Source: a virus (Duplodnaviria; Heunggongvirae; Uroviricota; Caudoviricetes). Taken from it: a DNA stretch of 64,000 bases. Location of the stretch: the IMG/VR virus record IMGVR_UViG_3300033076_000726, positions 55,240-119,239 of that record. The stretch is one strand, 5' to 3'. Under the pieces are notes generated by a model. It saw only the letters and a program-made list of their open reading frames with translations, was not told where the DNA came from and did not search any database. The translations under genes were made by a program, and so were the position numbers. Position 1 is the stretch's first letter; the number at the start of each line of letters is the position of its first letter. Positions 1 to 16,000 of this stretch are shown one piece after another.

Positions 1-2
1 AT

Positions 3-257
3 AATTTAAGAAGATGGACAACATCTAATGATACGAATATCGGTACTGTTGCTAAACCACACGCTAACTGTGGTGAGGAAAACTTCACAATGGGACAAGA
101 TTGGCAATACATGCTTGGAAATTATGATGGAACAGGACAAAACAATACAAGTTGGAAATTCTATTATGCAAGTGATACAGGTTCAAATAGTGTACAAGGT
201 TTAGCTCCAGGTGTAAATGCGGGAACATCTTCAGGCACATGTGGGTGGAGAGCATAA
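3..257 (+). CDS. 3' fragment of a G/S/T/N-rich protein truncated by the window start (fibre/structural-like)
   Basis: Open frame from the window edge to TAA at 255-257; ends ...SNSVQGLAPGVNAGTSSGTCGWRA. Gly/Ser/Thr/Asn-rich composition resembles phage fibre C-termini. Confidence 0.4.
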   Translation, partial: NLRRWTTSNDTNIGTVAKPHANCGEENFTMGQDWQYMLGNYDGTGQNNTSWKFYYASDTGSNSVQGLAPGVNAGTSSGTCGWRA

Positions 258-304
258 TTAACTTGATTTTATCAATATTTTTAATTATATTTAAATAAAA
301 AAAT

Positions 305-1069
305 ATGGAAAAGAAATTCGAATACGAAAGAATATCACACAATTTAAGTGATGAAGACAAGAAATTATTAGAAATTGCTGAAGGATTAAGTTTTGCATTA
401 CCAAAGTACAAGGCTGAAAATTTCGTAGGAGGTTCTCAAATTACACCATACGCTAAATTAAGACAATGGTTAATGGAATTGAGAACGAGAGAAGATGCCG
501 CGGAACATATGGAATATCTTAAACGTAAAAAAGAAATTGAAATTGAATTAGAACATGAGAAAATAGAATATATTACGGAACCATTAAAAAGAGAATTAGT
601 TGAATTGGCAATTAAAGATATGCACATTGATTTGAGAAAATACAATAGAAATTTAAAAGATGCATATAGAGAAAGACAAATTTTTATTGATTTAATTAGA
701 GATTTTCTTGAAAGTGAGGATGGTAAATTACCTGATGGTACATCTCTAATGGAAATATTCAACAATCAATTACTTGAGGACAAATATGAAAAAGAGTATT
801 GGAGTGTTCGTATGGCTAAACAAGCGATGTTGGATATGATTTCATATGGTAGAGTCGGTACCGGTAATTTAGATTCAATTTTAATGATGTCACCTGAACA
901 ACAAAAAGAAGTTATGGCATTGGCATCATCGTATACTGTTACTATCGATAGAAATATAAACACTTTGATGGGTATGGCGGCAACAAACCAAACTTTAATT
1001 GATGGGCAATTAAAAGACCAATTTAAAATTGGTACAGCTAATGATGATTTAAATGAAAAATTATTATAA
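305..1069 (+). CDS. hypothetical protein
   Basis: 254-aa ORF, ATG start, first of a co-directional overlapping gene block; no recognisable motif. Confidence 0.6.
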   Translation: MEKKFEYERISHNLSDEDKKLLEIAEGLSFALPKYKAENFVGGSQITPYAKLRQWLMELRTREDAAEHMEYLKRKKEIEIELEHEKIEYITEPLKRELVELAIKDMHIDLRKYNRNLKDAYRERQIFIDLIRDFLESEDGKLPDGTSLMEIFNNQLLEDKYEKEYWSVRMAKQAMLDMISYGRVGTGNLDSILMMSPEQQKEVMALASSYTVTIDRNINTLMGMAATNQTLIDGQLKDQFKIGTANDDLNEKLL

Positions 1070-1809
1070 TGAAACATATTATTTTTAAAATGAGTATTGA
1101 GTCACCAGGTTATGTGATTAAATTGGGTAGTTATTTGAACTACACCGTTGGTAGAATTCCTGATGAATATGATGATAATAGAGTTGAATTAAAAAAGATG
1201 AACGCAGTTGTTGTTCCTGAAGAATTTGCAAGAGGTTATCTTTTTGCGGATATCTATAAAGACTACGTTTCAATACGAACTAATTCACACATTATTGATG
1301 AATTCCCACAATTTGCAAATTCAGGTGAAACGGAATCTGAAAAAGTTAAATACTTTTTAACAAATGAAGATAGAGAATTGGGTGTTAAATTTAACAAATT
1401 TGTTATGTTAAAAGTAATTGCCGATAGATTTTCAGAAAGAATGAAAAATCTTATTGTCGATGCGTCAGATTTGGAAATGGCAACATGGGAAGAACAAAAA
1501 AGAGAAGCGTTGGCATATCAATTAGATAATACCACATCAACACCTTTAATTGATATTTTAGCTGCAGGTAGAAATATTACAAGAGAAACATTGGTAAATA
1601 AAATTTTAACAAACGTCGAATCGTATAAAATTAAATTGGCAAATTTACTTGTTGAACAACAACAATTAGAACAACGAGTTAAAGCTTGTCAAACTATACC
1701 AGATTGCCATAGATTAAAACATGAAAAATTTGGTGTTAGTATGAGTTACCAACAACAACAAGATGAAAATGTACCAACTTCACCGCTGACGTTAACTATG
1801 GATTTCTAA
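1069..1809 (+). CDS. hypothetical protein
   Basis: 246-aa ORF; its ATG overlaps the upstream stop (TAATG); no motif recognised. Confidence 0.6.
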   Translation: MKHIIFKMSIESPGYVIKLGSYLNYTVGRIPDEYDDNRVELKKMNAVVVPEEFARGYLFADIYKDYVSIRTNSHIIDEFPQFANSGETESEKVKYFLTNEDRELGVKFNKFVMLKVIADRFSERMKNLIVDASDLEMATWEEQKREALAYQLDNTTSTPLIDILAAGRNITRETLVNKILTNVESYKIKLANLLVEQQQLEQRVKACQTIPDCHRLKHEKFGVSMSYQQQQDENVPTSPLTLTMDF

Positions 1810-1810
1810 T

Positions 1811-2455
1811 ATGGTTGAAAATTATTTAGAAACGTATGAATATGGTATCATAATATCAGATTTTATTGATTCTACAACAACAAATTCCCTTTCTAATAAA
1901 ATATTGGAAAGGGAATCTTACATTAAGGGACTTGACGATGGAAGTAAATTGCCAATGAAAATCGTCAATCAAGGTAATGTTACAAATTACCACACATATT
2001 ATAATTTATTAGATTTAGAAATCGAAGAAACTGAAACTTTGATATTAAAAATTAAAGAATTGATATTCAATACTTTCGGATGGGAAAATTTTTACATAAA
2101 AATGTGGGCAAATATTTTTAGAAAGGGAGATTATCTTGGATTACATAAGCATATGGACAATATCAGTCTTAAAAAATTCCCATATGCGGTAAGTGGACAT
2201 TGTTTTCTATATTCTTCAGAAAAAACATACACCACTTTTTTGTTTAAGAATAAAAAAATCAGTATATTTGATAGTAGTATCAATGTTGTCGATTTGGAAA
2301 ACAAACCAGGTGAAGTTTCCATATTCTCCTCATATGTTGAACATGAGTTTAAAAAATGGGACGGTGATTTAAGAGTCGGAATTGCATTTGATATTAACAA
2401 TGAACCTGATGCTAACATTGATTGGCTCAAAAATAGACAATTTAAATACGTTTAG
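1811..2455 (+). CDS. putative 2OG-Fe(II) oxygenase-like protein
   Basis: HKHMD (HxD) ... VEHEF (distal His) ... RVGIAF spacing resembles the 2OG-oxygenase facial triad plus Arg; assignment is tentative. Confidence 0.4.
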   Translation: MVENYLETYEYGIIISDFIDSTTTNSLSNKILERESYIKGLDDGSKLPMKIVNQGNVTNYHTYYNLLDLEIEETETLILKIKELIFNTFGWENFYIKMWANIFRKGDYLGLHKHMDNISLKKFPYAVSGHCFLYSSEKTYTTFLFKNKKISIFDSSINVVDLENKPGEVSIFSSYVEHEFKKWDGDLRVGIAFDINNEPDANIDWLKNRQFKYV

Positions 2456-3463
2456 ATGAATTTTGTTATAAATGGTACATGTGCTAAAGGATGTTCTTTT
2501 TGTTTCACTAAAGAAGAGGCAAGAACCAAACATACTTTAGGTGAAATGACTTTATCTAAAATAGATGAACTAATTGACCATTACAAACTTCATAAAAGTA
2601 AAGAAGAAATTACAATATTGGGAGGAGAACCAACACAACATTCTAATTTTACAGGAATAGTTGATCATATTATATCTAAAGGTTTGAAAATCAATTTAGT
2701 TAGTAATTTTTTATTTGGTAAATCGACAAGAGAATTTATTATAAAAAACATTAGACATATCAGATGGGTATTTCCAAATGCGGCCGAATTAGACGAGAAG
2801 AATCGAATGGTTATATTCAAAAAGAATTACAATGAAATATATGACGCTTATTTGAATACGTGGGGATTCGATAATCACCCAAGATTATATTTGGCCATTA
2901 CAATGTCAAATAATTGGAAAGAAAAGAATTTCTACGAATATATAAAATGGTTATACCACCAATTAGATGGTAAAATTAACGCAATTAGAGTTGGGTTAGA
3001 TTTAACAAATACATATCTTGTTAATAATAAAGATATGGGTTCTGAAATCACTAAAATATTAAAATTTGGAAAATATAATGACATTAAAATAACATCTGAT
3101 TGTCAAGTACCTCCATGTTTGTGGGAAGGTAAAACTGTTGAATCCGTCATGGAAAATTCGTTAGGGTTTGCAACATTTAAAATACCGGAATATGACACCA
3201 TATGTGGATTTATGCCATTAGATGTTTTCCCCGATGGAAGTTCGATACATTGTTATCCTTTGGAGGATAAAGTTAAAATAAAAAATGTATTGGATATTAG
3301 TGGTGAAAGTAATATCTTAGCATTAAGACAAGAGTTCGATAAATTATATAAAGAAAATCATAAAAATTATACATTACCAAAAGACTGTTTAGAATGTCAT
3401 TTCTATAAGACGTTATGTAACGGTATCTGTGGTGGATGTTTAGAGGGAAGTCAACATGAGTAA
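2456..3463 (+). CDS. radical SAM enzyme with C-terminal SPASM/twitch-like Cys cluster
   Basis: N-terminal CAKGCSFC (CxxxCxxC), ILGGEPTQH glycine-rich SAM motif, C-terminal Cys cluster CQVPPC...CGF...HCYP...CLECHF...CNGICGGC. Confidence 0.8.
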   Translation: MNFVINGTCAKGCSFCFTKEEARTKHTLGEMTLSKIDELIDHYKLHKSKEEITILGGEPTQHSNFTGIVDHIISKGLKINLVSNFLFGKSTREFIIKNIRHIRWVFPNAAELDEKNRMVIFKKNYNEIYDAYLNTWGFDNHPRLYLAITMSNNWKEKNFYEYIKWLYHQLDGKINAIRVGLDLTNTYLVNNKDMGSEITKILKFGKYNDIKITSDCQVPPCLWEGKTVESVMENSLGFATFKIPEYDTICGFMPLDVFPDGSSIHCYPLEDKVKIKNVLDISGESNILALRQEFDKLYKENHKNYTLPKDCLECHFYKTLCNGICGGCLEGSQHE

Positions 3464-4481
3464 AATATTTTCAATACCATTAAATCCAATGTTATCTGAA
3501 GAAGATTTCGTTGGTAAATTTGCACCATTTTTAGAGGAATATAAAGAATGGATTTATGATATCTATTTCACTTGTAGAATACCACCATTTACACAAGATG
3601 CTATGGGTACAGTATTCAAACAAGAAGACAGAGATGTTGTAATTGAAAACGCATTTCAAATTCAAGATGTGTTAGGAATTAAAATTAGTGCAACATTTAA
3701 TAATGTCAATGTATCCCCAAAGTTTGACAATTATAAATTGTTTATTGAACATCTTAAACCATTATATGAAAGGGGATTAAGAAGTATCACTTTAGCACAC
3801 GCACATTGGGTTGCTATGGGTATTAAAAATCATTTTCCCGATATGGAGGTTAAGAATACCATATTAAGAAAAGTGGCAACCGCTCAAGATTTCTGGTACA
3901 ACGCGGAACAAGGATTTGATTATGTCAATGTCGATAGAATCTTAATGAGAGATGTTGAAGAATTGAAAAATATTCGAAGAGCTCAATTACAATTTCAACA
4001 AAAACACGGAAGATATGTAAAAATTGCATTATTAACCAATGAAGGTTGTTTAGGAAGATGTCCTATGATGGATGAACACTACTCATATAATAATTTAAAA
4101 TTGGATAATGAATTACCATACTTTAGACATGAGATATCAAAAGTAACTTGTGAATATAAATGGGAAAAAGAAATAAATGCATTTTTCTTTAAAGCGGCAA
4201 CAATTCCTCCATTCAAAAAGGAATACGATGAATTTTTAAACTACATTGACGTGTTTAAAATGCACGGTAGAGATAGTTTCAATAGACTGGATGAAACGAT
4301 GGATATCGTTAAAGGATATGTTGCCGGTAATGAAACATTATCTGTCTCATCTAAATTATATTTGGATGGTGTACCATCTGACGAATTAGACGGTTGGAGA
4401 AATAAAATAAAGAAATGTAAATTCCAATGTTGGGATTGCAATTATTGCGACATTGTTGCGGATTATAAAAAAGGTAAATAA
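3456..4481 (+). CDS. Cys-rich hypothetical protein, partner of the radical SAM gene
   Basis: 341 aa; start overlaps the upstream stop; CLGRCPMMDEH and C-terminal CKFQCWDCNYCD clusters; no CxxxCxxC. Confidence 0.55.
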   Translation: MSKIFSIPLNPMLSEEDFVGKFAPFLEEYKEWIYDIYFTCRIPPFTQDAMGTVFKQEDRDVVIENAFQIQDVLGIKISATFNNVNVSPKFDNYKLFIEHLKPLYERGLRSITLAHAHWVAMGIKNHFPDMEVKNTILRKVATAQDFWYNAEQGFDYVNVDRILMRDVEELKNIRRAQLQFQQKHGRYVKIALLTNEGCLGRCPMMDEHYSYNNLKLDNELPYFRHEISKVTCEYKWEKEINAFFFKAATIPPFKKEYDEFLNYIDVFKMHGRDSFNRLDETMDIVKGYVAGNETLSVSSKLYLDGVPSDELDGWRNKIKKCKFQCWDCNYCDIVADYKKGK

Positions 4482-5143
4482 TGGATTACATTAAACATAT
4501 TGACGATTCAGTAAAGTGGGGAGAATTGGAGGTATCTAAACTTACTTTAGACATATTAAACATACATGGGATAACAAGTAATAAAGTTAAATGTCTATTA
4601 AATAATATATGTAACATAGATGGTGCCAATTATTTAGAAATCGGTGTCTTTAGAGGTTCTACATTTTGTTCCGCAATATATGGTAATAATATAACCGCAA
4701 CTGGAATTGACAATTGGAGTTCGCCATATTTGATGCCAAGTGGGGTTAGTCAAAAAATGAACTTCTATTTAAGGGACAAATCAAATGACCCTAAAGAGGA
4801 ATTCTTATCGAATGTCAAAAAATACGGTAACGTAGAAAAATTAAACGTTTATAGGGCAAATTATTTGGATTTTGATTATTCAACTATCGGTCCGTTGGAT
4901 ATTATTTTTTACGACGGGGAGACAAAGTACTATGACCAATATACTACAATAAAAAATCTAATACCTTATATGTCAAACAATTGTATTTTAATTATTGACG
5001 ATTGGAATTGGCAAAAAGAGGGTGCAACCAAAGCGTTGGAGGATTCAAATGCCTTTATAACATACCAAAAAAATCTATACACAAACGGAGAAGACTCAAA
5101 AGATTTTTGGAATGGAATCGGTATATTTTTAATTGAAAAGTAG
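4481..5143 (+). CDS. class I SAM-dependent methyltransferase (TylF/MycF/CmcI-like)
   Basis: YLEIGVFRGSTFCSAI (SAM-binding GxGxG-like segment) and IIFYDGETKYY...ILIIDDWNW, typical of the macrocin-O-methyltransferase fold. Confidence 0.65.
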   Translation: MDYIKHIDDSVKWGELEVSKLTLDILNIHGITSNKVKCLLNNICNIDGANYLEIGVFRGSTFCSAIYGNNITATGIDNWSSPYLMPSGVSQKMNFYLRDKSNDPKEEFLSNVKKYGNVEKLNVYRANYLDFDYSTIGPLDIIFYDGETKYYDQYTTIKNLIPYMSNNCILIIDDWNWQKEGATKALEDSNAFITYQKNLYTNGEDSKDFWNGIGIFLIEK

Positions 5144-5207
5144 TTCTATTTCTCACATTTTTTGTTTATATTTGAGTAATAATAAACTTTTCTTAAACAA
5201 AAAACAA

Positions 5208-6092
5208 ATGAGAAAAACAATCACAACACTATCGCTAATGTTAGTGTTATTGTTTACTACAACATTGTCATATGGTCAATATAGTAGTAGTGCAATTCAG
5301 AAAGGTTCAGAACAATCCTTAAAAGTTCAAACGGATACACTCCATAATCAATTACAAGAAATTGTTGTTAGTGCAAAGAAAGTTCCTTTGATGACAAGAG
5401 TTGGTGAATACAATCAACCACTTTGGTCAACAATTCGAATGTTTCCATCTACACGTGTTTACATTATGAATCCACCAAATACAGTAATGTATGAGAAGTG
5501 GTTCGATATTAGACAACGTAGAAATGGTCCGGCACAAATCAGAATGAGAGATGAATTCACATTCGGTTTAGGTAAGAGACTTCAATTAGATGTATATTCA
5601 CACACAGTTTATGACGGTTATAATGGTGATAAGGAATTCAAATGGAGAGGATTTTCTTGGGAATTCAGATACGCATTAGCCGATTGGGGTAAACTATGGG
5701 GTAATCCAACAATCTATTGGGAAACCAAAATGTTAGATGGTCGTTGGGGAATTGAACCAAAACTATTGTTAGGAGATAGAGTAGGTAGAAATGGTGTGTG
5801 GGGATTCAATGCAATCTATGAAGGTAACTTAGGTGGTACTAAAGAAGAACAAGAACGTGAATATGCGTATACCGCATCATATGCAAAAATCCTAAACAAT
5901 GATTTAACATTAGGTGTTTCACATATGTTTAGATACAATGACTATGAAGGTGGTTCACAAGAATGGTATCTCGGACCATTAGTACAATACCGATTCACCA
6001 ACAAAGCATATTTGAATGTTGAACATATGCCAGGTTTAAATCAAGACGCAAAATTATCAAGAACCACAATTATATTCGGATGGAGATTTTAA
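5208..6092 (+). CDS. secreted outer-membrane beta-barrel-like protein
   Basis: ATG at 5208 gives MRKTITTLSLMLVLLFTTTLSYGQ (Bacteroidetes-type signal peptide). C-terminus ...TTIIFGWRF ends in an aromatic residue like the OMP beta-signal. The track start at 5133 is a TTG upstream. Confidence 0.5.
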   Translation: MRKTITTLSLMLVLLFTTTLSYGQYSSSAIQKGSEQSLKVQTDTLHNQLQEIVVSAKKVPLMTRVGEYNQPLWSTIRMFPSTRVYIMNPPNTVMYEKWFDIRQRRNGPAQIRMRDEFTFGLGKRLQLDVYSHTVYDGYNGDKEFKWRGFSWEFRYALADWGKLWGNPTIYWETKMLDGRWGIEPKLLLGDRVGRNGVWGFNAIYEGNLGGTKEEQEREYAYTASYAKILNNDLTLGVSHMFRYNDYEGGSQEWYLGPLVQYRFTNKAYLNVEHMPGLNQDAKLSRTTIIFGWRF

Positions 6093-7087
6093 TCAAAGGA
6101 CAAGAATTCCTTGTCTACTTAATATTCATTATGTTCGTAACTGGTATCCTCAAGGAAAGAGGATACCTTATGGACATCTTTAGACTTTTAGAACAGAAAG
6201 TTAAATCAAAGAAGATGGTGGTCTTCTTAGTATCGTTATTTGGTGGAGTGTTACCAATACCAGGTCGTGTTGCATTATCAGCATCTATGTTGAATAGTAT
6301 TGCACCAGTTGATAATAAAAAACGTAAGAAGTTTGGTATTATCGATTACCTTGCAACACACCATTATTATTTATGGTCACCCTTGGAGAAGACTGTTATC
6401 ATACCTATGGCTGTATTAGGATTAACTTATGTGCAGTTTATGTCTTATATCTGGCCGTTGTTATTGATTTCAGGATTATACATCAGTTATTATATTCTAT
6501 CATTAGATGAAGATGAAATTGATATTGAAGTTAAAGACGACCCAATCGATTGGAAGAACATCTATCTTGTAGTTATCCCATTTCTAGCTACGATTATGAT
6601 GTGTGTTTTCTTTACTGATTATTATTTTGGATTCTTTATGGGGTTCACATTATGGTTGGTATATTATTCCAATAGTTGGAAAAAATTACTCGATTATGTG
6701 AATTGGGAACTGATATGGATTGTGGCGTTAGTTATTATTTTAGGTAACTTAATAGGTTCATATTATAATGTAATTGAAGGGTATATTAAACAATATAATA
6801 AACCTGAATATATATTGATTGTATCTATGATATCATTTTTATCCTCGTTTATGTTGGGGTCTTCTGCAAAATATGCTAGTATCGTAAGTTTATTAACAAG
6901 TGTATTTGGAATGCAATATTTTGTTTTATTTTTCACTTTAGAATACTCCGCATATCTAATATCCCCATCACACAAATGTCTACCAATAGGTCAAAAATAT
7001 TTCCACACAGGTTTTATGACATATTTGAAGGCTTTGATAATATGGATATCAATAATGATGACATATGCACTATTAACAATAATATAA
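6080..7087 (+). CDS. polytopic integral membrane protein
   Basis: 335 aa with 8 or more hydrophobic segments and a LFGGVLPIPGRVALSAS motif. Confidence 0.6.
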   Translation: MEILIKGQEFLVYLIFIMFVTGILKERGYLMDIFRLLEQKVKSKKMVVFLVSLFGGVLPIPGRVALSASMLNSIAPVDNKKRKKFGIIDYLATHHYYLWSPLEKTVIIPMAVLGLTYVQFMSYIWPLLLISGLYISYYILSLDEDEIDIEVKDDPIDWKNIYLVVIPFLATIMMCVFFTDYYFGFFMGFTLWLVYYSNSWKKLLDYVNWELIWIVALVIILGNLIGSYYNVIEGYIKQYNKPEYILIVSMISFLSSFMLGSSAKYASIVSLLTSVFGMQYFVLFFTLEYSAYLISPSHKCLPIGQKYFHTGFMTYLKALIIWISIMMTYALLTII

Positions 7088-7101
7088 AATACATATAAAA
7101 T

Positions 7102-7563
7102 ATGAATAAGATAAATTTAACATTAGGAGAAATTAGACAATTAAACGATGAAATTAACGGACTCATCAATCAAGAAACAGGTAACGTTATTTTTGAAGGA
7201 TTTTTAAATCAAAAAATTTCAATTTTATTAAAATATGAATTAACCGATTTAAGTGAATTTCTCGAAAAGGAAAAAAATAAAACCGAAAAAATAAAAGATG
7301 AACTGATTTTAAAATACGGTGAGGAGGATGAAAAGGGAATAAAGTTAAACATGTGGTTAATTGATAAGGACGATGAGGGTAAAATATTATCCAAAACCAT
7401 AAATCCAAAATACGTTCAATTTGATGAAGAAATGGGTAAACTTATGTTGATGGAGAAAGAAATTGAATATCCTGATATCACTAAAGATGATTTAAAAAAC
7501 ATCGGAGAAACGAAAGACAATTATCAAGTGTTATTTAAACTAATAAAAAAAGGGACTAATTAA
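7102..7563 (+). CDS. hypothetical protein (Lys/Glu-rich)
   Basis: 153-aa ORF, last gene of the first rightward block, convergent with the minus-strand glycan island. Confidence 0.55.
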   Translation: MNKINLTLGEIRQLNDEINGLINQETGNVIFEGFLNQKISILLKYELTDLSEFLEKEKNKTEKIKDELILKYGEEDEKGIKLNMWLIDKDDEGKILSKTINPKYVQFDEEMGKLMLMEKEIEYPDITKDDLKNIGETKDNYQVLFKLIKKGTN

Positions 7564-8662
7564 GTCCCTTTCTTATTTCTATCATCATATTTCCTATTTG
7601 ATATTCACCCGGTTCATAATGAGGTATTGACAATCTTAAAGTGTATAAAAGATACACATCCTCATCTGTAAACGGTGCGGTTTCGTAAATCATCACATCT
7701 ACGGTATCTGTAAGGGTAAATTTGGACCTTAAATCATATCTGGTATTCTTCTGTTCATTCTCAATATAATCTTCAGGAATACGTCCTAAATTGATTTTAT
7801 CAAAGAATGGCTCAATCTCAAACAATCTATTGGAATTATTCGTAGATAATCCCATTGTGAATGTGTTATATTTAAATTCCTTATCTTCCCAATATCTTAA
7901 TTCATTAAATGACATAATAGGAATCCCCCACTTTCTTACGAAATTTCTATTGGATGATATTTCAATAATTTGTCTATTGTTCTTCATATCATCACTAAAT
8001 CTTGATGTCTGTGAAACAAAATGATAAGTGATAGCCGATTCACAAGTTTTTAATTCATATCCTTTTAGTTTTGCACGAATAAGAAAATCATCGTCTTCAC
8101 AAAAACAAGGTGCGAAACTAAATCCATCAAACATCCCAACATCCTCAAACATTTTCTTATATCCGCTCATAAAGAACACAGCACCGTCATATAGGGTATC
8201 TGAGTTTTTCCATTGTTGAACGTAATTGTTGAAATGATATGTGTTAAAATTTAAGAACGATGAACCTAAATCTAATAGAACTTTACCAGGTCTTTTGTGA
8301 CCGGCAAAAATTGGTGGTTCAATTGTTGTATAAGACAATAACATATTTGGTTGTAATAATCGTTCAATGGCTTCTAAAAAACCTTCACCGATAACCATAT
8401 CGTTATGTATCAAAACAAGCTTTTCAGTATCAACTAATTTAATACCCGCATTATATGTTTCAGAAAATGTTAATCTATCATCATCATGAATAAATGAAAG
8501 ATTATTGTCCTCCAAAGATTCTAACCATTCTTTTGTTCCATCTGTAGAACCACCACTACTTATAACTAATGGTTCGTTTGGATATAAATCACGAAGATAT
8601 CTATAACATTCTTTTGTTAGATTTAATTTATTATATACCGCTAATACAAATGTTATATTCAT
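7556..8662 (-). CDS. glycosyltransferase family 2
   Basis: N-terminal ITFVLAVYNKLNLTKECYRYL...SSGGSTDGT and LIHNDMVIGEGF fit a GT-A/GT2 fold. Confidence 0.75.
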   Translation of the reverse strand: MNITFVLAVYNKLNLTKECYRYLRDLYPNEPLVISSGGSTDGTKEWLESLEDNNLSFIHDDDRLTFSETYNAGIKLVDTEKLVLIHNDMVIGEGFLEAIERLLQPNMLLSYTTIEPPIFAGHKRPGKVLLDLGSSFLNFNTYHFNNYVQQWKNSDTLYDGAVFFMSGYKKMFEDVGMFDGFSFAPCFCEDDDFLIRAKLKGYELKTCESAITYHFVSQTSRFSDDMKNNRQIIEISSNRNFVRKWGIPIMSFNELRYWEDKEFKYNTFTMGLSTNNSNRLFEIEPFFDKINLGRIPEDYIENEQKNTRYDLRSKFTLTDTVDVMIYETAPFTDEDVYLLYTLRLSIPHYEPGEYQIGNMMIEIRKGLN

Positions 8663-9525
8663 TACTTATTATTCAAATATTCAACAATGTAATCTTCAAT
8701 GTTTTTAGTTGGTTCCCAATCTAATTGAAGTCTGGCTTCAGAACTATCACATAAAGTTATTAACGCCTCACCTGGTTTATCATCAGTAAAAACATATTCG
8801 TGTTTGAACATTTTAGCAATATCCTCGATTGAATAATTCTTACCTCTACCTAATTCGAATATATGTCCCCATTTATCATAAGATTTAATTCGAATAAGAC
8901 CATCCACAATATCTTCAATGTGTGTGAAATCCCTTCTCTTAGTTCCATCACCATAAATTGTTAATGGTTGACCGTCTTCAATTGCTTTTTCCCACTTACC
9001 GATTAAAGTACAATATCCACCCTCCTTCAAATGATGAGGGCCATATACATTATAGAAACGAGCAACACTTGCTTTCAAATTAAAATGTTGTTGATACATT
9101 TGAATAATCTCTTCACCAACATCTTTACTAAAAGTATATGGATTTTTAAATTTACCACTATGGTGTGAACTACTTCCCGCATATATTAGTGGTATGTTAT
9201 TTTGTACACAATAATCTGCAATGTATAAAGTACCATTTGCATTTGTTTGAAAATAACCAACTGGATTTTTAAAGGATGGTTGTATACGTGCAATTGCAGC
9301 TAAATGATATACCACATCAAAAGTTTGACCATCATCCAAATACGGGTTCCAATTTCTTTTTCTAAATGATATGTCTTCATTAACATATTTTGCACCCTCT
9401 ACGTGATTTGTTCTAAACCCCGTAAAATAGTTATCAACGGAAACAACATTGTGTCCTTCACTAACTAATCTTTTAATTAAATTGGTACCAACAAATCCAG
9501 CACCACCAGTCACTAATACGTTCAT
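8662..9525 (-). CDS. NAD-dependent sugar-nucleotide dehydratase/epimerase (SDR; UXS/4,6-dehydratase-like)
   Basis: VLVTGGAGFVGTNL Rossmann GxxGxxG, VDNYFTG, catalytic YTFSK (YxxxK). Confidence 0.8.
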   Translation of the reverse strand: MNVLVTGGAGFVGTNLIKRLVSEGHNVVSVDNYFTGFRTNHVEGAKYVNEDISFRKRNWNPYLDDGQTFDVVYHLAAIARIQPSFKNPVGYFQTNANGTLYIADYCVQNNIPLIYAGSSSHHSGKFKNPYTFSKDVGEEIIQMYQQHFNLKASVARFYNVYGPHHLKEGGYCTLIGKWEKAIEDGQPLTIYGDGTKRRDFTHIEDIVDGLIRIKSYDKWGHIFELGRGKNYSIEDIAKMFKHEYVFTDDKPGEALITLCDSSEARLQLDWEPTKNIEDYIVEYLNNK

Positions 9526-10646
9526 TATCTATTATTTACTATTTTAATTATTGATTCAATATCTTCATCCGTTAAACCTAAATGTAACGGTAAAGTTAAT
9601 TCATGTTTATCGTACCATTCTGCATTTACCAATCCACCCACTTTCTTAAATTCTCTAAATGGTTCATATTTGTCATTTCTTTTATAGTGCATACCACAGT
9701 AAACACCATTGTTTTTTAACAAATCATAAACCTCATCTCTGTCTTCAAAAAATAAAGGTAAAAAGTGTGACGAAGAAACTCTATCCGATTTATATTCAGG
9801 TAACAAAGCACCTTCGACACTATCTAAATAATATTGTGCAATTCTTCTACGACGCGTATTATTTTGATTGATTGTTTCTAAACCAATAATACCCATTGTA
9901 GATGCGATATCTGTTAAATGATACTTGTACCCAACTTCCTCAACTTCATAATCCCAATTGTATGTTGGTTTTTCAGTATTCAAATTACTTCTTGAAACAG
10001 TATCTTTATTGATACCTAACCATCTTAATTTATTTAAACGAGTATATAATTCTTCGTTGTTTGTTGAAATTGCACCACCATCCCCAACTGGTAAGTTTTT
10101 CACAGCTTGAAAACTCCAAACACAAATGTTATCAGTATCACCAATCATTTTACCATTGTACATTCCGCCAAATGCGTGTGCACAATCTTCAATAACAGGA
10201 ATACCATAACGATTGGCAATTTCATTGATACGAATCATATCACAACTATATCCACCGATATGAACAACGATAATCGCTTTAATTTCGTTATCTTCTTGTA
10301 ATGCTTGTTCAATAGAATCGGCACAAATATTACCGGTCATTTTTTCAACATCACAAAATACTGGAATATGACCTTCATACATAATTGCATGGTTTGTACT
10401 AACAAACGTATTTGATGTTGTAATGATTTTAGATTTAGGTGGTAAGTTTAAACACTTAACTGCTAAATGTAAACCAGCAGTTGCACTATTCAATGCAACA
10501 AAATACTTTGAACCGATATATTCGGATAATTTTGTTTCGAACTCCTTTGTTTTTGGACCCAATCCAATCCATCCTGAATTAAGAATTGGTCTTAATTCAT
10601 TTAGAATTCTTTCGGTGTCAATCATTGGTTTGAATACTTGTATCAT
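9525..10646 (-). CDS. DegT/DnrJ/EryC1/StrS-family PLP-dependent sugar aminotransferase
   Basis: ATAGLHLA, IIVVHIGGYSCDM, EDCAHAFGG, and SFQAVKNLPVGDGGAI (PLP-lysine region). Confidence 0.85.
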   Translation of the reverse strand: MIQVFKPMIDTERILNELRPILNSGWIGLGPKTKEFETKLSEYIGSKYFVALNSATAGLHLAVKCLNLPPKSKIITTSNTFVSTNHAIMYEGHIPVFCDVEKMTGNICADSIEQALQEDNEIKAIIVVHIGGYSCDMIRINEIANRYGIPVIEDCAHAFGGMYNGKMIGDTDNICVWSFQAVKNLPVGDGGAISTNNEELYTRLNKLRWLGINKDTVSRSNLNTEKPTYNWDYEVEEVGYKYHLTDIASTMGIIGLETINQNNTRRRRIAQYYLDSVEGALLPEYKSDRVSSSHFLPLFFEDRDEVYDLLKNNGVYCGMHYKRNDKYEPFREFKKVGGLVNAEWYDKHELTLPLHLGLTDEDIESIIKIVNNR

Positions 10647-11218
10647 AAATTTAAAAATTGTTGCGGTGTTATAAGATTTAATATTTCTTTTCTATTTTCA
10701 TCTAATAATTTAAAATCTAACACATCTGATTTTGGAAATAAGGTTTGTTTACCTTTACTAATAATACCAACACCGTGGTCAGTATCGACAACACACATAT
10801 TTAAATTTTCGTCTGTCATTCTGAATTTAACATATGCCTTCCATGTTGTCCCATTCCAAGTAGTTCCAAGAACATATTCTTCCACTTGATGTTCTTCTTT
10901 AATTGGACTACAGTCATGCATCACAATTGTTCCTCCATCACTTAAATGTTTTAATGAGTTGGTGATATCTTTTTCTACCTGATAATCAAGATGTAAACCA
11001 TCAATGAAGATAATATCATATTTTACGTTTTCATCTAATTGCTCAAAGAAATCGTCAGATGTAATTGGATAGTTACAACGACCCGCTGGGTCAACACCAT
11101 CCTTATGTTCAATATCAATTAGATTTAAATTGGATTCAGGGTCTCTAACTCCAATTTCTAAATACCGTTTATAATTATTTTTCTTGATTAAGTGATTGAT
11201 AATGTCTGTTCTTTTCAT
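10643..11218 (-). CDS. class I SAM-dependent methyltransferase (Methyltransf_24/TylF-like)
   Basis: YLEIGVRDPESN and DIIFIDGLHLDYQVEKD...LSDGGTIVMHDC. Confidence 0.7.
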   Translation of the reverse strand: MKRTDIINHLIKKNNYKRYLEIGVRDPESNLNLIDIEHKDGVDPAGRCNYPITSDDFFEQLDENVKYDIIFIDGLHLDYQVEKDITNSLKHLSDGGTIVMHDCSPIKEEHQVEEYVLGTTWNGTTWKAYVKFRMTDENLNMCVVDTDHGVGIISKGKQTLFPKSDVLDFKLLDENRKEILNLITPQQFLNL

Positions 11219-11729
11219 TCTTTTTTGCTTTTAAAATTATATCTGAATGTCCTCCATCCAAAGAATATGTTAGTTCGATAATTGTGAAATCTTCCTCAAA
11301 GAAATTTTGAATTTCTGTTAGACTCATTCGTACTTCATCTCCATAATTGTAGATGTTTGGTGATGAGGTATGTCCCTTCTCACATTTATCCGAACACATA
11401 GATAAAAATAAGAAACCTCCGTCACATAGTAAATCGGTAATTTGTTTTTTATAAAGATTTGGTTCAGGACAAAATTGAAATGAACTTATGGATGTCACAA
11501 AATTATATATCCCAATATGTTCTTCGGGGATAATGCCAGGTTCAATAACCACATCCACACCTTCTCCATCATATATGTCAAAACCAATTGCGTGTGATAT
11601 AATATTTTTAGTTGAACCGTTTATATTATACGCACCCACATCTGCAATTTTTGATGAATCGATACTAATCCTGTTTGATTTATACCAATCCTCAAGACGA
11701 TATTTTACATTATCATGCATATTGTTCAA
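11175..11729 (-). CDS. putative SAM-dependent methyltransferase
   Basis: IADVGAYNINGS (GxGxG-like), GVDVVIE, LLCDGGFLFLS; weaker match. Confidence 0.45.
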   Translation of the reverse strand: MNNMHDNVKYRLEDWYKSNRISIDSSKIADVGAYNINGSTKNIISHAIGFDIYDGEGVDVVIEPGIIPEEHIGIYNFVTSISSFQFCPEPNLYKKQITDLLCDGGFLFLSMCSDKCEKGHTSSPNIYNYGDEVRMSLTEIQNFFEEDFTIIELTYSLDGGHSDIILKAKKNEKNRHYQSLNQEK

Positions 11730-12624
11730 TAAGTTTTATCAGTTTTTCGGTTATAACTTTTGTACTTAAACTGTTCAAAATAAAAGGTTGAATATCTTTA
11801 AGATATCTTCTTCTGTTGTGGATGTTGTTTAATATATTAAGTGCGTTTTTTAATGATTGTGGGTCATTGGCAATCGCATAATCTAAATTGAATTCTTTTG
11901 CTAATTCTTCATAACTTCTTGATGAGTTAACAATACATGGTACACCACAAGCAATTGACGCAATCATTTTATTGTTACTCTTTACACCAGCATCTGAACC
12001 TAAATGAGATAATGCACATACATTTGATTTTCTTAAATCATCTACAAACGTATCAAGTCCCCATTGTGTTTTCGTAATCGGCGGTTGAACGTTTATGTTT
12101 CTTGCATCAGTTATTAAATTTAATTCAAATCTTGTTTCAATAATGTGAGGAACCATCCATTGTATCGACTGAGCATTTGGATAATTACCAAACCAAGCAA
12201 TTTTATTGGATACCTCAGGAGTTTCTAATATATCAACAACACCATAATCCAAACAATCCTCAATAACAATACATTCTTTACCAGTACCCAAAGAATCGAA
12301 ATGTTCTTTTCTACCCAAAGTATCTGTTGTAACAATATCGATATGTTCCATCATCTCTCTGAAATGTGGATTATTGTGTACAGGGTCATCGAAGTCAAAT
12401 ATTTTGAATCCTTCAAATGCTTTAACATATGTAAGTGTTTGGTTATCAATTCTTTTTTGAATGATTAGTATATCTGAATTGATATCAAAACCAATATTAC
12501 TTTCATACTTGTTAGAATGGTATCTGTTAATCGATTGATTTGGATAGAACAAACGTATTCTTGTTGATGCAAAGTTTTTTACATCATCATACATTGGTAT
12601 CCATGAAATTTTCTTAGTTGACAT
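11713..12624 (-). CDS. putative GT-B glycosyltransferase
   Basis: C-terminal SNNKMIASIACGVPCIVNSS resembles the GT4 donor-binding segment. Confidence 0.45.
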   Translation of the reverse strand: MSTKKISWIPMYDDVKNFASTRIRLFYPNQSINRYHSNKYESNIGFDINSDILIIQKRIDNQTLTYVKAFEGFKIFDFDDPVHNNPHFREMMEHIDIVTTDTLGRKEHFDSLGTGKECIVIEDCLDYGVVDILETPEVSNKIAWFGNYPNAQSIQWMVPHIIETRFELNLITDARNINVQPPITKTQWGLDTFVDDLRKSNVCALSHLGSDAGVKSNNKMIASIACGVPCIVNSSRSYEELAKEFNLDYAIANDPQSLKNALNILNNIHNRRRYLKDIQPFILNSLSTKVITEKLIKLIEQYA

Positions 12625-13210
12625 ATTCCCAATTAAATCTTAATCTTGGTGTTGACTCAACACCTTTTCTTTTTATTACTTCTAAATTATGTGTACTGTC
12701 TCTAACACCTTCACTTGAACTTTCCTTAGCGTATACTTTCGCTTTAATGTGTCTTAACTCATGTACTTCTAATAATCTTACACATTTATTATAGAAATGT
12801 ATATCATCATAACCATAGTTACCACAGAAGTCTTCATCATACCCACCAATCTTTTCAAAGTCATCTTTATGGATTACATAGATGTTTACACTATTAGTAT
12901 CTTCTCTACCTAAGTAATAAACACAACCACGTTTTAATTCTGTCTTTTCTAATTGTTCCATATTTTCTTTAGTCACTAAGTGGTCAATGTCTGCACATAA
13001 TATCCACCCATCGCTAATATGAAATCCTAAATTTCTTGCACCTGGTTGATTCCATTTAATGTCATCAGTTACCCTAACAACCTTAACACCATCCAATGGT
13101 CCTAATGGTTCCTTAGAACAATCATCAACAATAACAGTTTTCAATCCTTGTTCTAAAATACCTTGTATTCTTTCTCTTTGTCCGAAATATGTGTATAATA
13201 CTGTAATCAT
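12614..13210 (-). CDS. glycosyltransferase family 2-like (small)
   Basis: TVIVDDCSKEP and NQPGARNLGFHISDGWILCADIDHL (DxD-like). Confidence 0.55.
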   Translation of the reverse strand: MITVLYTYFGQRERIQGILEQGLKTVIVDDCSKEPLGPLDGVKVVRVTDDIKWNQPGARNLGFHISDGWILCADIDHLVTKENMEQLEKTELKRGCVYYLGREDTNSVNIYVIHKDDFEKIGGYDEDFCGNYGYDDIHFYNKCVRLLEVHELRHIKAKVYAKESSSEGVRDSTHNLEVIKRKGVESTPRLRFNWEYVN

Positions 13211-13213
13211 AAA

Positions 13214-13912
13214 TTATCTTAAATGTTTTCCTTGGTCATCAAAATACTCATTACCACCACTATCCCCTTTAACGGCATATAAGTTTGCATAACCTTTTAA
13301 TCTTTTTCTTTTTAATTTCTTATCTAATTTCCATATACAATATGGAAAACTAATTTGGTCTCTTGAACTAAATCTACATATTTGTTCCCACCACATTAAC
13401 TGTAATTGTTTAATTACATCTGTGGTTTTTACTATGAATGTCGAAAGTTCGAACAACCCAAATAATTCTGGCATCCCTTTAGATTTGTAGAACGCGAATT
13501 GATTATCAATATTTTGTTGATAGTCCAATCTCCAATGAACACATGCACCCATCTCTTGATATAAACAAGTTCTATCAGGATGTTTAAATAAAAAGATATC
13601 GGTATCGGCACCATACTCATCTATAATCAATTGAGGGTCTTTTTTTAATTGGTGGTTACCATCTTCCCAAATAATATATTCATATTGAGGGAACATTATT
13701 GACGATAAAATTTTATATGGTTTGGCATTTCTTCTATCAGTAAGTCCATCAATGGATGAAAATTCTAATACACTTCTTTGTTCCCAAACTTTAACTGTCT
13801 CGTCTTTCTTATCCACATATGCAATATAATCACAATTGTCAAAAACCTGTGGTGGGTCTAACAATTTATCTTTTCCTCCGGTGATTGCGGTTAATACTAA
13901 GAATTTTTTCAT
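13214..13912 (-). CDS. putative glycosyltransferase (TOD1/DUF616-like)
   Basis: N-terminal FLVLTAITGGKDKLLDP resembles the DUF616 'IYTAIFGxYDxL' start; tentative. Confidence 0.35.
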   Translation of the reverse strand: MKKFLVLTAITGGKDKLLDPPQVFDNCDYIAYVDKKDETVKVWEQRSVLEFSSIDGLTDRRNAKPYKILSSIMFPQYEYIIWEDGNHQLKKDPQLIIDEYGADTDIFLFKHPDRTCLYQEMGACVHWRLDYQQNIDNQFAFYKSKGMPELFGLFELSTFIVKTTDVIKQLQLMWWEQICRFSSRDQISFPYCIWKLDKKLKRKRLKGYANLYAVKGDSGGNEYFDDQGKHLR

Positions 13913-14619
13913 ATTTTTTCGTTTCTACAAAGTACAAGTAATTTATCATTATCCCATCCTGGGGAATATCTATTTTTATGTTCGGTCACAATAAAAGTCA
14001 TTGAATGGAAATACGACTCTAACGGTTCAAAATTCTTTGCGAAATCGTCTTCATTGGTACTTCTAAAAATATCCTCAACAATTAAATAACCACCTGGTTT
14101 TATGTAACGATATGCGTGATATGCGAATAATGTGTTATGAGGTAAATCATGTATCATATCATCAATTATCACATCAAATCCACCACCAGTCGATTGTAAA
14201 CACTCTTCAATTGACTCGGATTTATTAACATCCATGAAATGATATGTAGTGTTTTCTAAATTATCACTAATTGCTTTATTCATGTATGTTTGGTCATATT
14301 CAAATCCATGTAACTCGGCATATGGGAAGTATTCCCTCCAACACTTCATTGACATATTTTCGGCAATACCGCCTTCAGCAAATTTAATTGGTTTGTATCG
14401 TAATGACATAAATAACATATCATATACCGCCATGTATGGATGTCTATGTCCATCATGAACAACATATGGAGATTTATCTGTTGGATATTTTACACCCAAC
14501 TTACATAAATCAGTAATTGAATCTGATGAATCGATTATTAGTTTATTTATTATCATATTGTTCCGTAATATTTGTTTTGTTTTTCTTGTCTTTGTATTGT
14601 TTTGTGATGTTGAATACAA
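13909..14619 (-). CDS. class I SAM-dependent methyltransferase
   Basis: GGGFDVIIDDMIHD...YIKPGGYLIVEDIF (Methyltransf_24-like). Confidence 0.6.
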   Translation of the reverse strand: MYSTSQNNTKTRKTKQILRNNMIINKLIIDSSDSITDLCKLGVKYPTDKSPYVVHDGHRHPYMAVYDMLFMSLRYKPIKFAEGGIAENMSMKCWREYFPYAELHGFEYDQTYMNKAISDNLENTTYHFMDVNKSESIEECLQSTGGGFDVIIDDMIHDLPHNTLFAYHAYRYIKPGGYLIVEDIFRSTNEDDFAKNFEPLESYFHSMTFIVTEHKNRYSPGWDNDKLLVLCRNEKI

Positions 14620-15173
14620 TATTCTTCGTCATCAGGTAAGGAGGCAAATTTACTACCGCCTATAATCCTTTCATGAACTTTACCATACCATCTAAGATGT
14701 TTCTTATAAATTCTACCTTGTCTATCGGGAAAATTTATCCAACCCTTTTCATTTATGTTCCATCTCCAAGTGTCGATATGTTCTTGTGTTATCCCATCTA
14801 CTGTGTTAATACGGGGTACAAAGATTAAGTCTACGTTTGGGTTCATTTCAAGAATGTTATGTAAATTCTCAACCATATATTGACTAATCATCTCATCTGC
14901 GTCAATTTGATAGATATAATCACCAGTACAATAACCGTTTAATATGTTTTTAAAATCGGCAAAATTATCATTCCAATCAAAACATCTCCAAGTTTGAACA
15001 TTTGGTAGTTTATTATACGGTAATAGAAAATTTAATACGTCAGGGTCTCCATTTGTGTTATCATATAGAATCACTATTTCGTCCTGAGGTCTCTTGTAAT
15101 CCAATAAAAACGGGACTAATCTCCTTATTTCCGTCAATTCGTTGCAAATTGTTATTGCGTAACTTATCTTCAT
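14553..15173 (-). CDS. glycosyltransferase family 2
   Basis: MKISYAITICNELTEIRRL...EIVILYDNTNGD, then QIDADE (DxD). Confidence 0.65.
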   Translation of the reverse strand: MKISYAITICNELTEIRRLVPFLLDYKRPQDEIVILYDNTNGDPDVLNFLLPYNKLPNVQTWRCFDWNDNFADFKNILNGYCTGDYIYQIDADEMISQYMVENLHNILEMNPNVDLIFVPRINTVDGITQEHIDTWRWNINEKGWINFPDRQGRIYKKHLRWYGKVHERIIGGSKFASLPDDEEYCIQHHKTIQRQEKQNKYYGTI

Positions 15174-15264
15174 ATTTTCGTTTATTTTCTTCTATCGTTA
15201 ATTCTTCACATCTCCAACACCACTCAGCGTCTTTAGAATCCCAACTGTGTCTTTCACATCTCAT
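15061..15264 (-). CDS. small Zn-ribbon-like protein (uncertain)
   Basis: Internal ATG gives MRCERHSW...AEWCWRCEE (C-x2-H...C-x2-C) with an ATGA overlap onto the upstream ORF stop; overlaps the GT2 start by ~110 nt. Confidence 0.3.
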   Translation of the reverse strand: MRCERHSWDSKDAEWCWRCEELTIEENKRKYEDKLRNNNLQRIDGNKEISPVFIGLQETSGRNSDSI

Positions 15265-15998: not shown

Positions 15999-16000
15999 CT

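Follow-up and report, generated by a model that had tools for sequence, protein, structure and literature searches.

A tightly packed operon in a tailed-virus genome couples a distant U32 homologue to a methyltransferase and to a predicted radical SAM-SPASM-type enzyme

We analyzed a 64,000-nucleotide (nt) stretch of DNA from a virus of the class Caudoviricetes (IMG/VR record IMGVR_UViG_3300033076_000726, positions 55,240 to 119,239; hereafter, the window), focusing on a cassette of four enzyme-type genes at 1811-5143. An earlier, sequence-only reading of this DNA had described four consecutive, tightly coupled genes, and that description holds exactly: the listed open reading frames (ORFs) span 1811-2455, 2456-3463, 3456-4481 and 4481-5143, encode proteins of 214, 335, 341 and 220 amino acids (aa), all on the + strand, and abut or overlap at every junction. 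The TAA stop of the preceding 246-aa gene is followed by a single base and the ATG of the first cassette gene (TAAtATG, 1809/1811), and the TAG of that gene lies immediately before the next ATG (TAGATG, 2455/2456). The second and third genes share 8 nt, ATGAGTAA, at 3456-3463, the third and fourth overlap by 1 nt at 4481 (TAATG), and no terminator-like hairpin was found within the cassette. With the two genes upstream, the features are as follows:

305-1069, + strand: 254-aa helical protein without Cys (phrog_1409, E 7.7e-45), the equivalent of cyanophage T4-GC353
1069-1809, + strand: 246-aa protein (phrog_1604), the equivalent of T4-GC352
1811-2455, + strand: 2-oxoglutarate (2OG)-Fe(II) oxygenase (PF13759, phrog_81)
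2456-3463, + strand: compact radical S-adenosylmethionine (SAM) enzyme with a predicted SPASM-type C-terminal Cys domain and no RRE domain (PF04055, Cys motifs, fold)
3456-4481, + strand: 341-aa TIM-barrel protein of Fe-S type, predicted distant U32 homologue, matching the N-terminal domain of cyanophage T4-GC354
4481-5143, + strand: class I SAM methyltransferase (PF13578), matching the C-terminal domain of T4-GC354

The 341-aa protein had been described simply as Cys-rich. It does contain seven Cys that are invariant in its family (C198, C202, C232, C321, C325, C328 and C331), but its U32-like nature had been missed, and recognizing it changes the most likely chemistry of the cassette. Single-sequence and profile searches of Pfam, NCBIfam and PDB sequences returned no match for this protein, and the case for a U32 link is accordingly built from comparison of folds and from profile-profile alignment with hhalign. 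The AlphaFold2 (AF2) model, built from a 31-sequence alignment with a predicted local distance difference test (pLDDT) score of 88.9, is a TIM barrel with a helical tail; the barrel is nearest to a solved U32 protein, and the best fold and profile matches are the U32-family Fe-S proteins Mk0906, TrhP and RlhA. A profile of 194 family sequences aligned with E. coli TrhP over 265 columns (probability 83.5%, P=8.3e-6) and with RlhA (P=1.3e-4), and the family also aligned with a four-sequence U32 profile (P=1.3e-4). These similarities to characterized U32 proteins stand above the controls, as the E. coli TIM barrels MetF, NanE, NanA and YhbW gave P values of at least 0.12 and 40 shuffled targets gave P values of at least 0.07. 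Alignment with TrhP places C198 and C202 at the pair of signature Cys required in TrhP and RlhA and C232 at the next cluster Cys, and we infer that these three invariant residues are putative [4Fe-4S] ligands. By profile and model, the 341-aa protein is thus a predicted, divergent protein of the U32 superfamily, and not a member of PF01136.

The adjacent gene, 4481-5143, had been assigned to the TylF/MycF family of methyltransferases, an assignment that reduces to resemblance at the superfamily level: the TylF model PF05711 matched none of 10 family members at E<=5, and PF13578 (Methyltransf_24) matched 10/10, with 35 bits against a cut-off of 26.3 for the protein in the window. The sole PDB profile match is weak, to 5zw3, B. 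subtilis YrrM/TrmR (E 0.0027, 20.9 bits), and in it the invariant D145 and D173-D174 align with D and D-N of YrrM. By comparison with COMT-type O-methyltransferases, we take D173-D174 to be a putative metal site, and by sequence the predicted product is probably a metal-dependent O-methyltransferase. A single profile, phrog_1458, covers the 341-aa protein with its positions 1-292 and the methyltransferase with positions 306-519, which means that in other phages the two form one polypeptide. Such fusions are represented by phrog_1458, by S-ShM2_051 and Syn19_046, and by dozens of metagenomic clusters.

We counted the genes of the operon over 80 IMG/VR loci, using as denominators the loci with enough flanking sequence and distinguishing the lineage of the window (U32-like protein at least 74% identical) from a distant group (46-50% identical):

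254-aa protein: 56/56 in the window's lineage, 18/19 in the distant group
246-aa protein: 56/56 in the window's lineage, 10/19 in the distant group
2OG oxygenase: 5/56 in the window's lineage, 0/20 in the distant group
Radical SAM enzyme: 57/57 in the window's lineage, 0/21 in the distant group
Methyltransferase: 47/47 in the window's lineage, 21/22 in the distant group
DUF401 membrane protein: 27/27 in the window's lineage, 6/13 in the distant group

These counts define a core of three, namely, the 254-aa and U32-like proteins and the methyltransferase, with DUF401 as a frequent companion and the radical SAM enzyme as a lineage-level addition. The cassette is accordingly not one co-conserved unit, because the 2OG oxygenase and the radical SAM enzyme are restricted to certain lineages. 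All four genes are present in metagenomic relatives at 92% identity or more; relatives at about 72-78% identity lack the 2OG oxygenase and keep the other genes; and where the radical SAM enzyme is 43-54% identical, its gene precedes a fused U32-methyltransferase gene and comes after fibre genes and the pair of small proteins. Homologies, fusion and co-conservation tie the U32-like protein and the methyltransferase to each other.

Among isolated phages, tblastn with the 341-aa protein found 126 records, 123 of marine cyanomyoviruses and 3 of Ralstonia jumbo phages (RP12, RP31), all less than 60% identical and, among the matches listed, 42-45% identical. The homologue in Syn19, S-ShM2 and S-H25 is the N-terminal domain of T4-GC354, which comes after T4-GC352 and T4-GC353; all three clusters are given only as 'Hypothetical-Protein' (PMC3037559 supplement). 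The U32-like/methyltransferase pair is widespread in ocean cyanophages, with no function assigned so far. In RP31, the order is ORF137 (homologue of the 254-aa protein), ORF136 (U32-like) and ORF135 (DUF401, overlapping ORF136), with no radical SAM gene and no methyltransferase within 15 kb of the U32-like gene; ORF135 and ORF137, which had been candidates for radical SAM and methyltransferase genes, are actually the DUF401 and 254-aa homologues. In the lineages examined, the module lies just downstream of fibre-like genes. The fragment at 3-257 of the window, previously called fibre-like, matches the C-terminus of a 364-380-aa protein that, in relatives, follows a fibre gene encoding 3,400-3,700 aa. 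Just upstream of the RP31 trio, ORF140 (L012 4393-4905) encodes a protein with collagen triple-helix repeats, echoing the fibre-gene surroundings of the module in marine phages.

An exhaustive profile search gathered the family of the 341-aa protein into 600 clusters at 50% identity (E<=0.001), and 185,579 species genomes contained three loci only; the family is mostly viral. A real chromosomal copy occurs in Halarcobacter, between a two-component system and APH-family kinases. There (Halarcobacter sp. CP182352.1; L021 6998-10209), the homologue is 44% identical, overlaps one APH-family kinase gene and faces a second, and lies downstream of genes for an ABC substrate-binding protein, a sensor kinase and a response regulator, a context that could hint at the substrate. 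The 652-aa protein of a Campylobacterales metagenome-assembled genome (L022 4586-6544) carries the U32-like domain after an N-terminal domain of about 300 aa with a C-x2-C-x5-C-x12-C pattern and no CX3CX2C motif; here the barrel may have been joined to a SPASM-like module in degenerate form. In P0231, P0292 and P0296, the U32-like domain is likewise preceded by about 200 aa of no recognized family. Across 149 representatives, the fusions found are to the methyltransferase and to N-terminal extensions of no recognized family; none to the 254-aa, 246-aa or radical SAM proteins was seen.

The gene at 2456-3463 had been called a radical SAM enzyme with a SPASM-type Cys cluster. The first part of this call is borne out by PF04055, which scores 44.7 bits against a cut-off of 29.5 and matches 33/33 family members, and by the cluster motif C9-x3-C13-x2-C16, invariant in 33 sequences. 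The second part is upheld by motif, fold and profile, but the dedicated hidden Markov models (HMMs) stay below threshold, with TIGR04085 at 17.5 bits against a cut-off of 27 and PF13186 matching 0/33 family members at E<=1. The C-terminal third contains eight more invariant Cys, including C250-x10-G-x4-C266 and C311-x2-C314-x6-C321-x3-C325, and C216, C221 and C328 are likewise invariant or nearly so; the seven-Cys SPASM motif (CX9-15GX4C...CX2CX5CX3C...C) is thus present, with x6 where the consensus has x5. The top Foldseek matches of the AF2 model (pLDDT 87.5) are SuiB (query TM-score, TMq, 0.62; E 4e-8) and anSMEcpe (TMq 0.59), aligned at full length over 366-376 columns, and the family profile aligned by hhalign with E. 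coli AslB/YdeM (probability 90%, P=1.5e-6) with both SPASM Cys motifs in register. On these sequence and model grounds, we accept the protein as a predicted radical SAM enzyme with a SPASM-type domain, belonging to a new subfamily. Its gene shares 8 nt with the U32-like gene in the window and 17-20 nt in L007 and L008, and tblastn with the protein against 50,697 isolated-phage records gave no match.

The statement that such a cassette is unusual for a phage was too strong, because published marine viral genomes of the T4-like type contain as many as 12 radical SAM genes (PMC5332604). Distant relatives of the radical SAM enzyme in the window (31-32% identity) belong to tandem arrays that comprise six to nine radical SAM genes (L006 1-14172, L108 3356-9693, and L109). 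In L108 and L109, the arrays are followed by an aminotransferase gene, a DAHP/KDO8P-synthase-family gene and a transaldolase-like gene, with tail genes adjacent. We know of no function proposed for phage tandem radical SAM arrays.

The call of a 2OG-Fe(II) oxygenase at 1811-2455 is confirmed by PF13759 (30.3 bits against a cut-off of 27) and by the catalytic residues, a facial triad of H114-M-D116 and H178, plus R188, as read from the sequence. The gene is limited to near-identical relatives (L014-L016, L027-L032) and absent at about 72-78% identity; the five loci that carry it in the counts above are the closest to the window, with U32-like proteins 85-95% identical. It is a recent, lineage-specific insertion. 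In S-ShM2 (L001 245-2921), T4-GC353 and T4-GC354 are separated by three 2OG oxygenase genes, petE, gnd, a gene for a 'minor coat protein' and several small ORFs. Orthology between these three enzymes and that of the window was rejected, the one match being weak and local (E 8e-5, 53 residues). As the same junction is also filled in S-ShM2, it is an insertion hot-spot in cyanophages that has repeatedly gathered non-orthologous 2OG oxygenases; hot-spot regions and sporadic 2OG oxygenases have been described in cyanomyoviruses (Sullivan et al., PMC3037559).

No gene stays beside the U32-like gene more constantly than that of the 254-aa protein; by tblastn, the two adjoin in the window's lineage, L007, Syn19/S-H25 and Ralstonia phage RP31 (ORF137). 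The 254-aa protein had no match among Pfam and PDB profiles. The JGI label 'MazG superfamily NTP pyrophosphatase', attached to P0447, P0453, P0477 and P0486, was rejected (hhalign to E. coli MazG, P=0.31), as was a paralogous relationship between the 254-aa and 246-aa proteins (P=0.62). Neither protein has a conserved Cys, the two in the 246-aa protein (207 and 213) being variable. Downstream of the cassette, the + strand unit continues past 5143 with three further genes and ends at a hairpin:

5208-6092, + strand: exported protein with a signal peptide (MRKTITTLSLMLVLLFTTTLSYG, then Q), its start Met chosen from the translation
6080-7087, + strand: DUF401/TIGR00529 polytopic membrane protein, transporter-like (PF04165, 43.5 bits; phrog_14035)
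7102-7563, + strand: 153-aa protein, final gene of the + strand unit, as given in the ORF listing and kept in 29/31 loci of the window's lineage
7546-7574, both strands: bidirectional terminator-like hairpin with 12-pair and 9-pair stems and T tails on each strand

The first of these ORFs, as listed (5133-6092), starts at a TTG overlapping the methyltransferase gene, and an internal Met at 5208 opens a typical signal peptide, MRKTITTLSLMLVLLFTTTLSYGQ. The exported protein weakly matches PF13557, an outer-membrane channel family (E 0.022), is kept downstream in 35/39 loci of the window's lineage, and is possibly a putative outer-membrane beta-barrel. A phage-encoded exported protein thus adjoins a membrane transporter-like gene in the window. 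The latter, DUF401, occurs together with the U32-like gene in three phage groups that are unrelated to one another: it overlaps that gene in Ralstonia phages RP12 and RP31 (RP31 ORF135 being 37% identical to the protein in the window), and lies one gene from the fused gene in S-H25 and L110. Besides the window copy, the DUF401 membrane protein is encoded at L012 8016-9056, L013 6995-8017 and L110 10112-11107. Among isolated phages it occurs in 12 records (9 Synechococcus, 3 Ralstonia), and the literature searched gave no function for DUF401.

At the hairpin, the + strand unit meets an 11-kb - strand island (7556-18636) of GT2 and GT1-like glycosyltransferases, an NAD-dependent epimerase and other sugar enzymes. 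The content of this island varies among close relatives, and the GC skew changes sign across it, with negative values between about 8 kb and about 18 kb. The islands of L003, L014 and L017 contain DUF3431, a CmcI-like methyltransferase or a UDP-galactopyranose-mutase-like gene. Elsewhere, the few genes of recognizable type include those for a DNA methyltransferase (29258-30235; phrog_116, E 3.7e-42) and a lipoprotein-family protein (45693-46637; phrog_200, E 7.4e-66); no informative match was obtained for most of the window's large ORFs, such as 40646-42793 and 38564-39970, and a 715-aa ORF had no tblastn match in isolated phages. The G+C content of the window is about 30%, it contains no tRNA genes, and megablast of positions 1-9000 against the 50,697 isolated-phage records gave no nucleotide match.

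The sequence-only reading had proposed a substrate-tailoring pathway. Enzymes of tailoring type do lie in one coupled operon beside fibre genes, but the idea that they make up a single four-gene pathway is not supported. Our preference, which is tentative, is for layered tailoring enzymes assembled around the conserved U32-like/methyltransferase pair, with O2-independent hydroxylation followed by O-methylation; this two-step logic fits best because the U32-like domain is fused to, or overlaps, a COMT-class methyltransferase. The U32-like enzyme, with a [4Fe-4S] cluster that would be held by C198, C202, C232 and a fourth ligand, would place a hydroxyl on an sp2 carbon of the substrate, and the methyltransferase would O-methylate the new hydroxyl; cluster binding, both reactions and their order are all predicted. 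In the window's lineage, the radical SAM-SPASM enzyme would add a radical step on the same substrate as the U32-like protein or would mature its partner, these being its most likely targets. In the closest relatives, the 2OG oxygenase would add an O2-dependent oxidation, possibly as an aerobic counterpart: by analogy with TrhO versus TrhP, or UbiI/H/F versus UbiU/V, it may be an O2-dependent alternative. The U32 proteins whose function has been studied are all linked to O2-independent hydroxylation of an aromatic or heteroaromatic carbon, with prephenate as the oxygen donor and a required [4Fe-4S] cluster (PMC6599085, PMC10990095).

The candidate substrates are, in order, a pyrimidine of RNA or DNA, a glycan or protein linked to fibres or the surface, and an aromatic small molecule moved by DUF401. 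The pointers to an RNA-type substrate, namely, the TrhP/RlhA match of the barrel and the TrmR match of the methyltransferase, are weak. A more specific version, in which cyanomyoviruses, Ralstonia jumbo phages and the window's lineage share a virus-specific U32 branch that is coupled to an O-methyltransferase and writes, without O2, a mark of the 5-hydroxy- or 5-methoxy-pyrimidine type on host tRNA or rRNA or on phage DNA, strikes us as improbable.

A series of observations weighs against the hydroxylation-methylation reading. At the level of the barrel, PF01136 matched 0/31 family members and 0/10 distant representatives at E<=5; the U32 signature E-x-F-x2-G-[SA]-[LIVM]-C-x4-G-x-C is absent, with N-E-G-C198-x3-C202 in the family; the spacing of these Cys is x3 and that in TrhP (C170, C177) is x6; the position of the essential TrhP E162 is Ala or Ser; UbiU and UbiV, taken singly, did not align significantly with the family (P=0.15-0.16); and the invariant tail motif C321-x3-C325-x2-C328-x2-C331 has no counterpart among U32 proteins. 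In vitro hydroxylation is yet to be demonstrated for any U32 protein (PMC10990095). At the level of the pathway, the TrmR match is weak, and the RP31 U32-like gene without a methyltransferase implies that O-methylation is not obligatory. As to the substrate, a nucleic acid would leave unexplained the position after fibre genes, the glycosyltransferase island and the pair of DUF401 and exported proteins. The fibre-gene position, the exported protein, DUF401 and the variable island favour instead a glycan, a protein or a transported small molecule, and the arrays of distant radical SAM relatives with aminotransferase, DAHP/KDO8P-synthase-family and transaldolase-like genes point the same way.

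The same surroundings lend themselves to an explanation that we consider unlikely but that keeps the most in its favour among the rivals, namely, tailoring of a sugar or nucleotide-sugar for virion fibres or the host envelope. The radical SAM enzyme would then resemble DesII, BtrN or BlsE, the barrel would be a sugar-phosphate enzyme, the methyltransferase would O-methylate a sugar hydroxyl as TylF and MycF do, and DUF401 and the exported protein would move the product or a precursor. In every lineage the operon follows giant fibre genes, and in RP31 it follows the collagen-repeat protein; the variable glycosyltransferase/epimerase island adjoins it in the window, but this island lies on the opposite strand, past the terminator, and the cyanophage and RP31 copies have no such island next to them. 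Similarly, DesII, BlsE and viperin-like enzymes are among the structural matches of the radical SAM model, the tandem arrays of distant relatives combine the aminotransferase, DAHP/KDO8P-synthase-family and transaldolase-like genes with nearby tail genes, and the Halarcobacter homologue is followed by APH-family kinases. The barrel itself points the other way, since its profile similarity is specific to U32 and does not extend to sugar-phosphate barrels (NanE, NanA and MetF at P of at least 0.12), in which seven invariant Cys would be unexpected. As for the methyltransferase, its acidic D...DD site presumably resembles those of metal-dependent sugar O-methyltransferases, but TylF PF05711 is not matched.

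Maturation of a protein or peptide, with the radical SAM-SPASM enzyme acting like an anSME or a maturase of peptides made on ribosomes and modified after translation (RiPPs) on the 254-aa, 246-aa, fibre or U32-like protein and the other cassette enzymes adding hydroxyl and methyl groups to side chains, appears still less probable. The enzymes closest in structure, SuiB and anSMEcpe, modify peptides or proteins, the profile match is to the anSME homologues AslB/YdeM (probability 90%), two small proteins are co-conserved directly upstream (56/56 loci), and the radical SAM and U32-like genes share 8 nt. The companions that define RiPP and anSME systems are, however, missing, which weakens the corresponding part of the sequence-only reading. 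No RRE or PqqD-like domain is present in the radical SAM protein because it begins at the cluster motif, with 8 residues before it and no extra domain. A Cys/Ser-rich precursor, sought in the upstream proteins, was not found, and there is no free ORF space for a short precursor gene next to the enzyme because the genes abut or overlap. No sulfatase gene was found in the locus, and no sulfatase-type C/S-x-P-x-R motif was seen on reading the sequence. The NCBIfam equivalogs listed, for RiPP maturases and anSMEs as for other functions, all scored far under their cut-offs, with no anSME model among the 25 of 38 matches listed, a result that also agrees with the enzyme not being a housekeeping one. 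The two upstream proteins, which had been suggested as its substrates, offer no conserved Cys, the 254-aa protein having none at all. Moreover, the 254-aa, U32-like and methyltransferase proteins are found together in 18-21 of about 20 loci without a radical SAM gene, and the upstream proteins, both of which occur where the enzyme does not, therefore cannot exist mainly as its substrates.

We see very little room for the view that there is no common pathway and that the locus is a post-fibre insertion hot-spot of unrelated auxiliary genes in which only the U32-like/methyltransferase pair is linked. The interval filled with 2OG oxygenases, petE, gnd and small ORFs in S-ShM2, the confinement of the window's own oxygenase to its closest relatives, and the hot-spots with sporadic 2OG oxygenases known from cyanomyoviruses (PMC3037559) speak for this view. 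Against it, the radical SAM gene is strictly co-conserved with the U32-like gene and overlaps it down to 43% identity, whether the latter is split from or fused to the methyltransferase, and the junctions are too tight for independent promoters. Equally doubtful is the proposal that the 341-aa protein is an Fe-S enzyme of another type, such as a non-canonical SAM-radical enzyme acting through C321-x3-C325-x2-C328 in the manner of the ThiC C-terminal cluster, whose full TIM barrel would work with the radical SAM-SPASM enzyme and the methyltransferase in a chemistry without U32 precedent: the invariant CX3CX2CX2C, absent from U32 proteins, does contain the canonical radical SAM spacing, and the U32 signature Glu, Cys spacing and Pfam match are lacking, but no radical SAM HMM matches the protein, both in fold and in profile it comes closest to U32 proteins rather than to radical SAM barrels, and the motif, which could equally bind Zn, sits in a lower-confidence helical tail (pLDDT about 80, down to 54 in the last block).

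No enzymes other than U32 proteins are known to be linked to O2-independent, prephenate-dependent hydroxylation; the U32 proteins comprise twelve subfamilies, most of them uncharacterized, and are described as almost exclusively bacterial, with fewer from archaea (PMC10990095). A large, divergent, mainly viral branch would bring this chemistry to viruses and would give a testable function to T4-GC352-354, 'hypothetical' in the cultured cyanophages Syn19, S-ShM2 and P-SSM3. As cultured phage-host pairs carry the core module, its product can be searched for directly by mass spectrometry, and the coupling of the U32-like protein to a radical SAM-SPASM enzyme could illuminate the oxidant or electron route of U32 enzymes. 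Should the pyrimidine-mark version be true, a viral epitranscriptomic or DNA-modification system would have been missed for 15 years as 'T4-GC354 hypothetical protein', with the radical SAM-SPASM enzyme and the 2OG oxygenase as add-on chemistries in the window's lineage. The superfamilies of the parts and the richness of marine phages in radical SAM genes (PMC5332604) are already known. In the literature searched, on U32 with phages, DUF401, and radical SAM/SPASM with cyanophages, we found no description of the module, whether of T4-GC354 as a divergent, largely viral U32 branch, of the hard-wiring of the U32-like protein to an O-methyltransferase, or of its coupling to the radical SAM-SPASM enzyme, the 254-aa partner and DUF401.

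The direct homologues of the module are T4-GC352, T4-GC353 and T4-GC354 (Sullivan et al. 2010), which correspond to the 246-aa protein, the 254-aa protein and the 341-aa protein plus methyltransferase, respectively, and are consecutive in Syn19, S-ShM2, S-H25 and others; the cyanophages differ from the window in having the two small genes in swapped order, the two enzymes fused, and no radical SAM gene. The marine viral genomes of Nishimura et al. 2017 are rich in radical SAM and other Fe-S genes, with up to 12 radical SAM genes (PMC5332604). Unlike the tandem arrays, the window has a single radical SAM gene coupled to the U32-like gene. With anSMEcpe, AslB/YdeM and SuiB, its product shares the radical SAM core and the SPASM motifs CX9-15GX4C and CX2CX5-6CX3C, and its compact size is like that of anSME, but it has no RRE domain, no sulfatase or precursor neighbour and no equivalog match, and its partner gene is U32-like.

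Two characterized pathways resemble the proposed sequence of reactions. In the ubiquinone pathway, UbiU/UbiV hydroxylate and UbiG then O-methylates (PMC10990095). The likeness lies in the hydroxylation of an aromatic ring followed by O-methylation, and the O2-dependent alternative hydroxylase of that pathway recalls the 2OG oxygenase (PMC10990095), as the accessory, non-enzymatic UbiT and the membrane context of the Ubi system recall the 254-aa protein and DUF401. By contrast, the phage methyltransferase is not UbiG-like by any match, and no prenyl or quinone genes lie near the cassette. The other parallel is the B. subtilis yrrM-yrrN-yrrO operon, in which TrhP1/TrhP2 (YrrO/YrrN) and TrmR (YrrM) convert U34 to ho5U and then mo5U (PMC6599085); TrhP of E. 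coli belongs to the same tRNA U34 pathway, which leads to mo5U/cmo5U. Here a U32-type Fe-S TIM barrel is genetically coupled to a COMT-like O-methyltransferase; TrhP gives the 341-aa family its top profile match, and for the methyltransferase family TrmR is the one PDB profile match. There are also differences: the C-terminal domain of TrhP/YrrO is missing from the phage protein, which has a CX3CX2CX2C tail instead; the obligatory 254-aa companion and the frequent DUF401 one have no counterpart in the tRNA pathway; and the phage activities are often fused, in a family that is viral and sits beside fibre genes.

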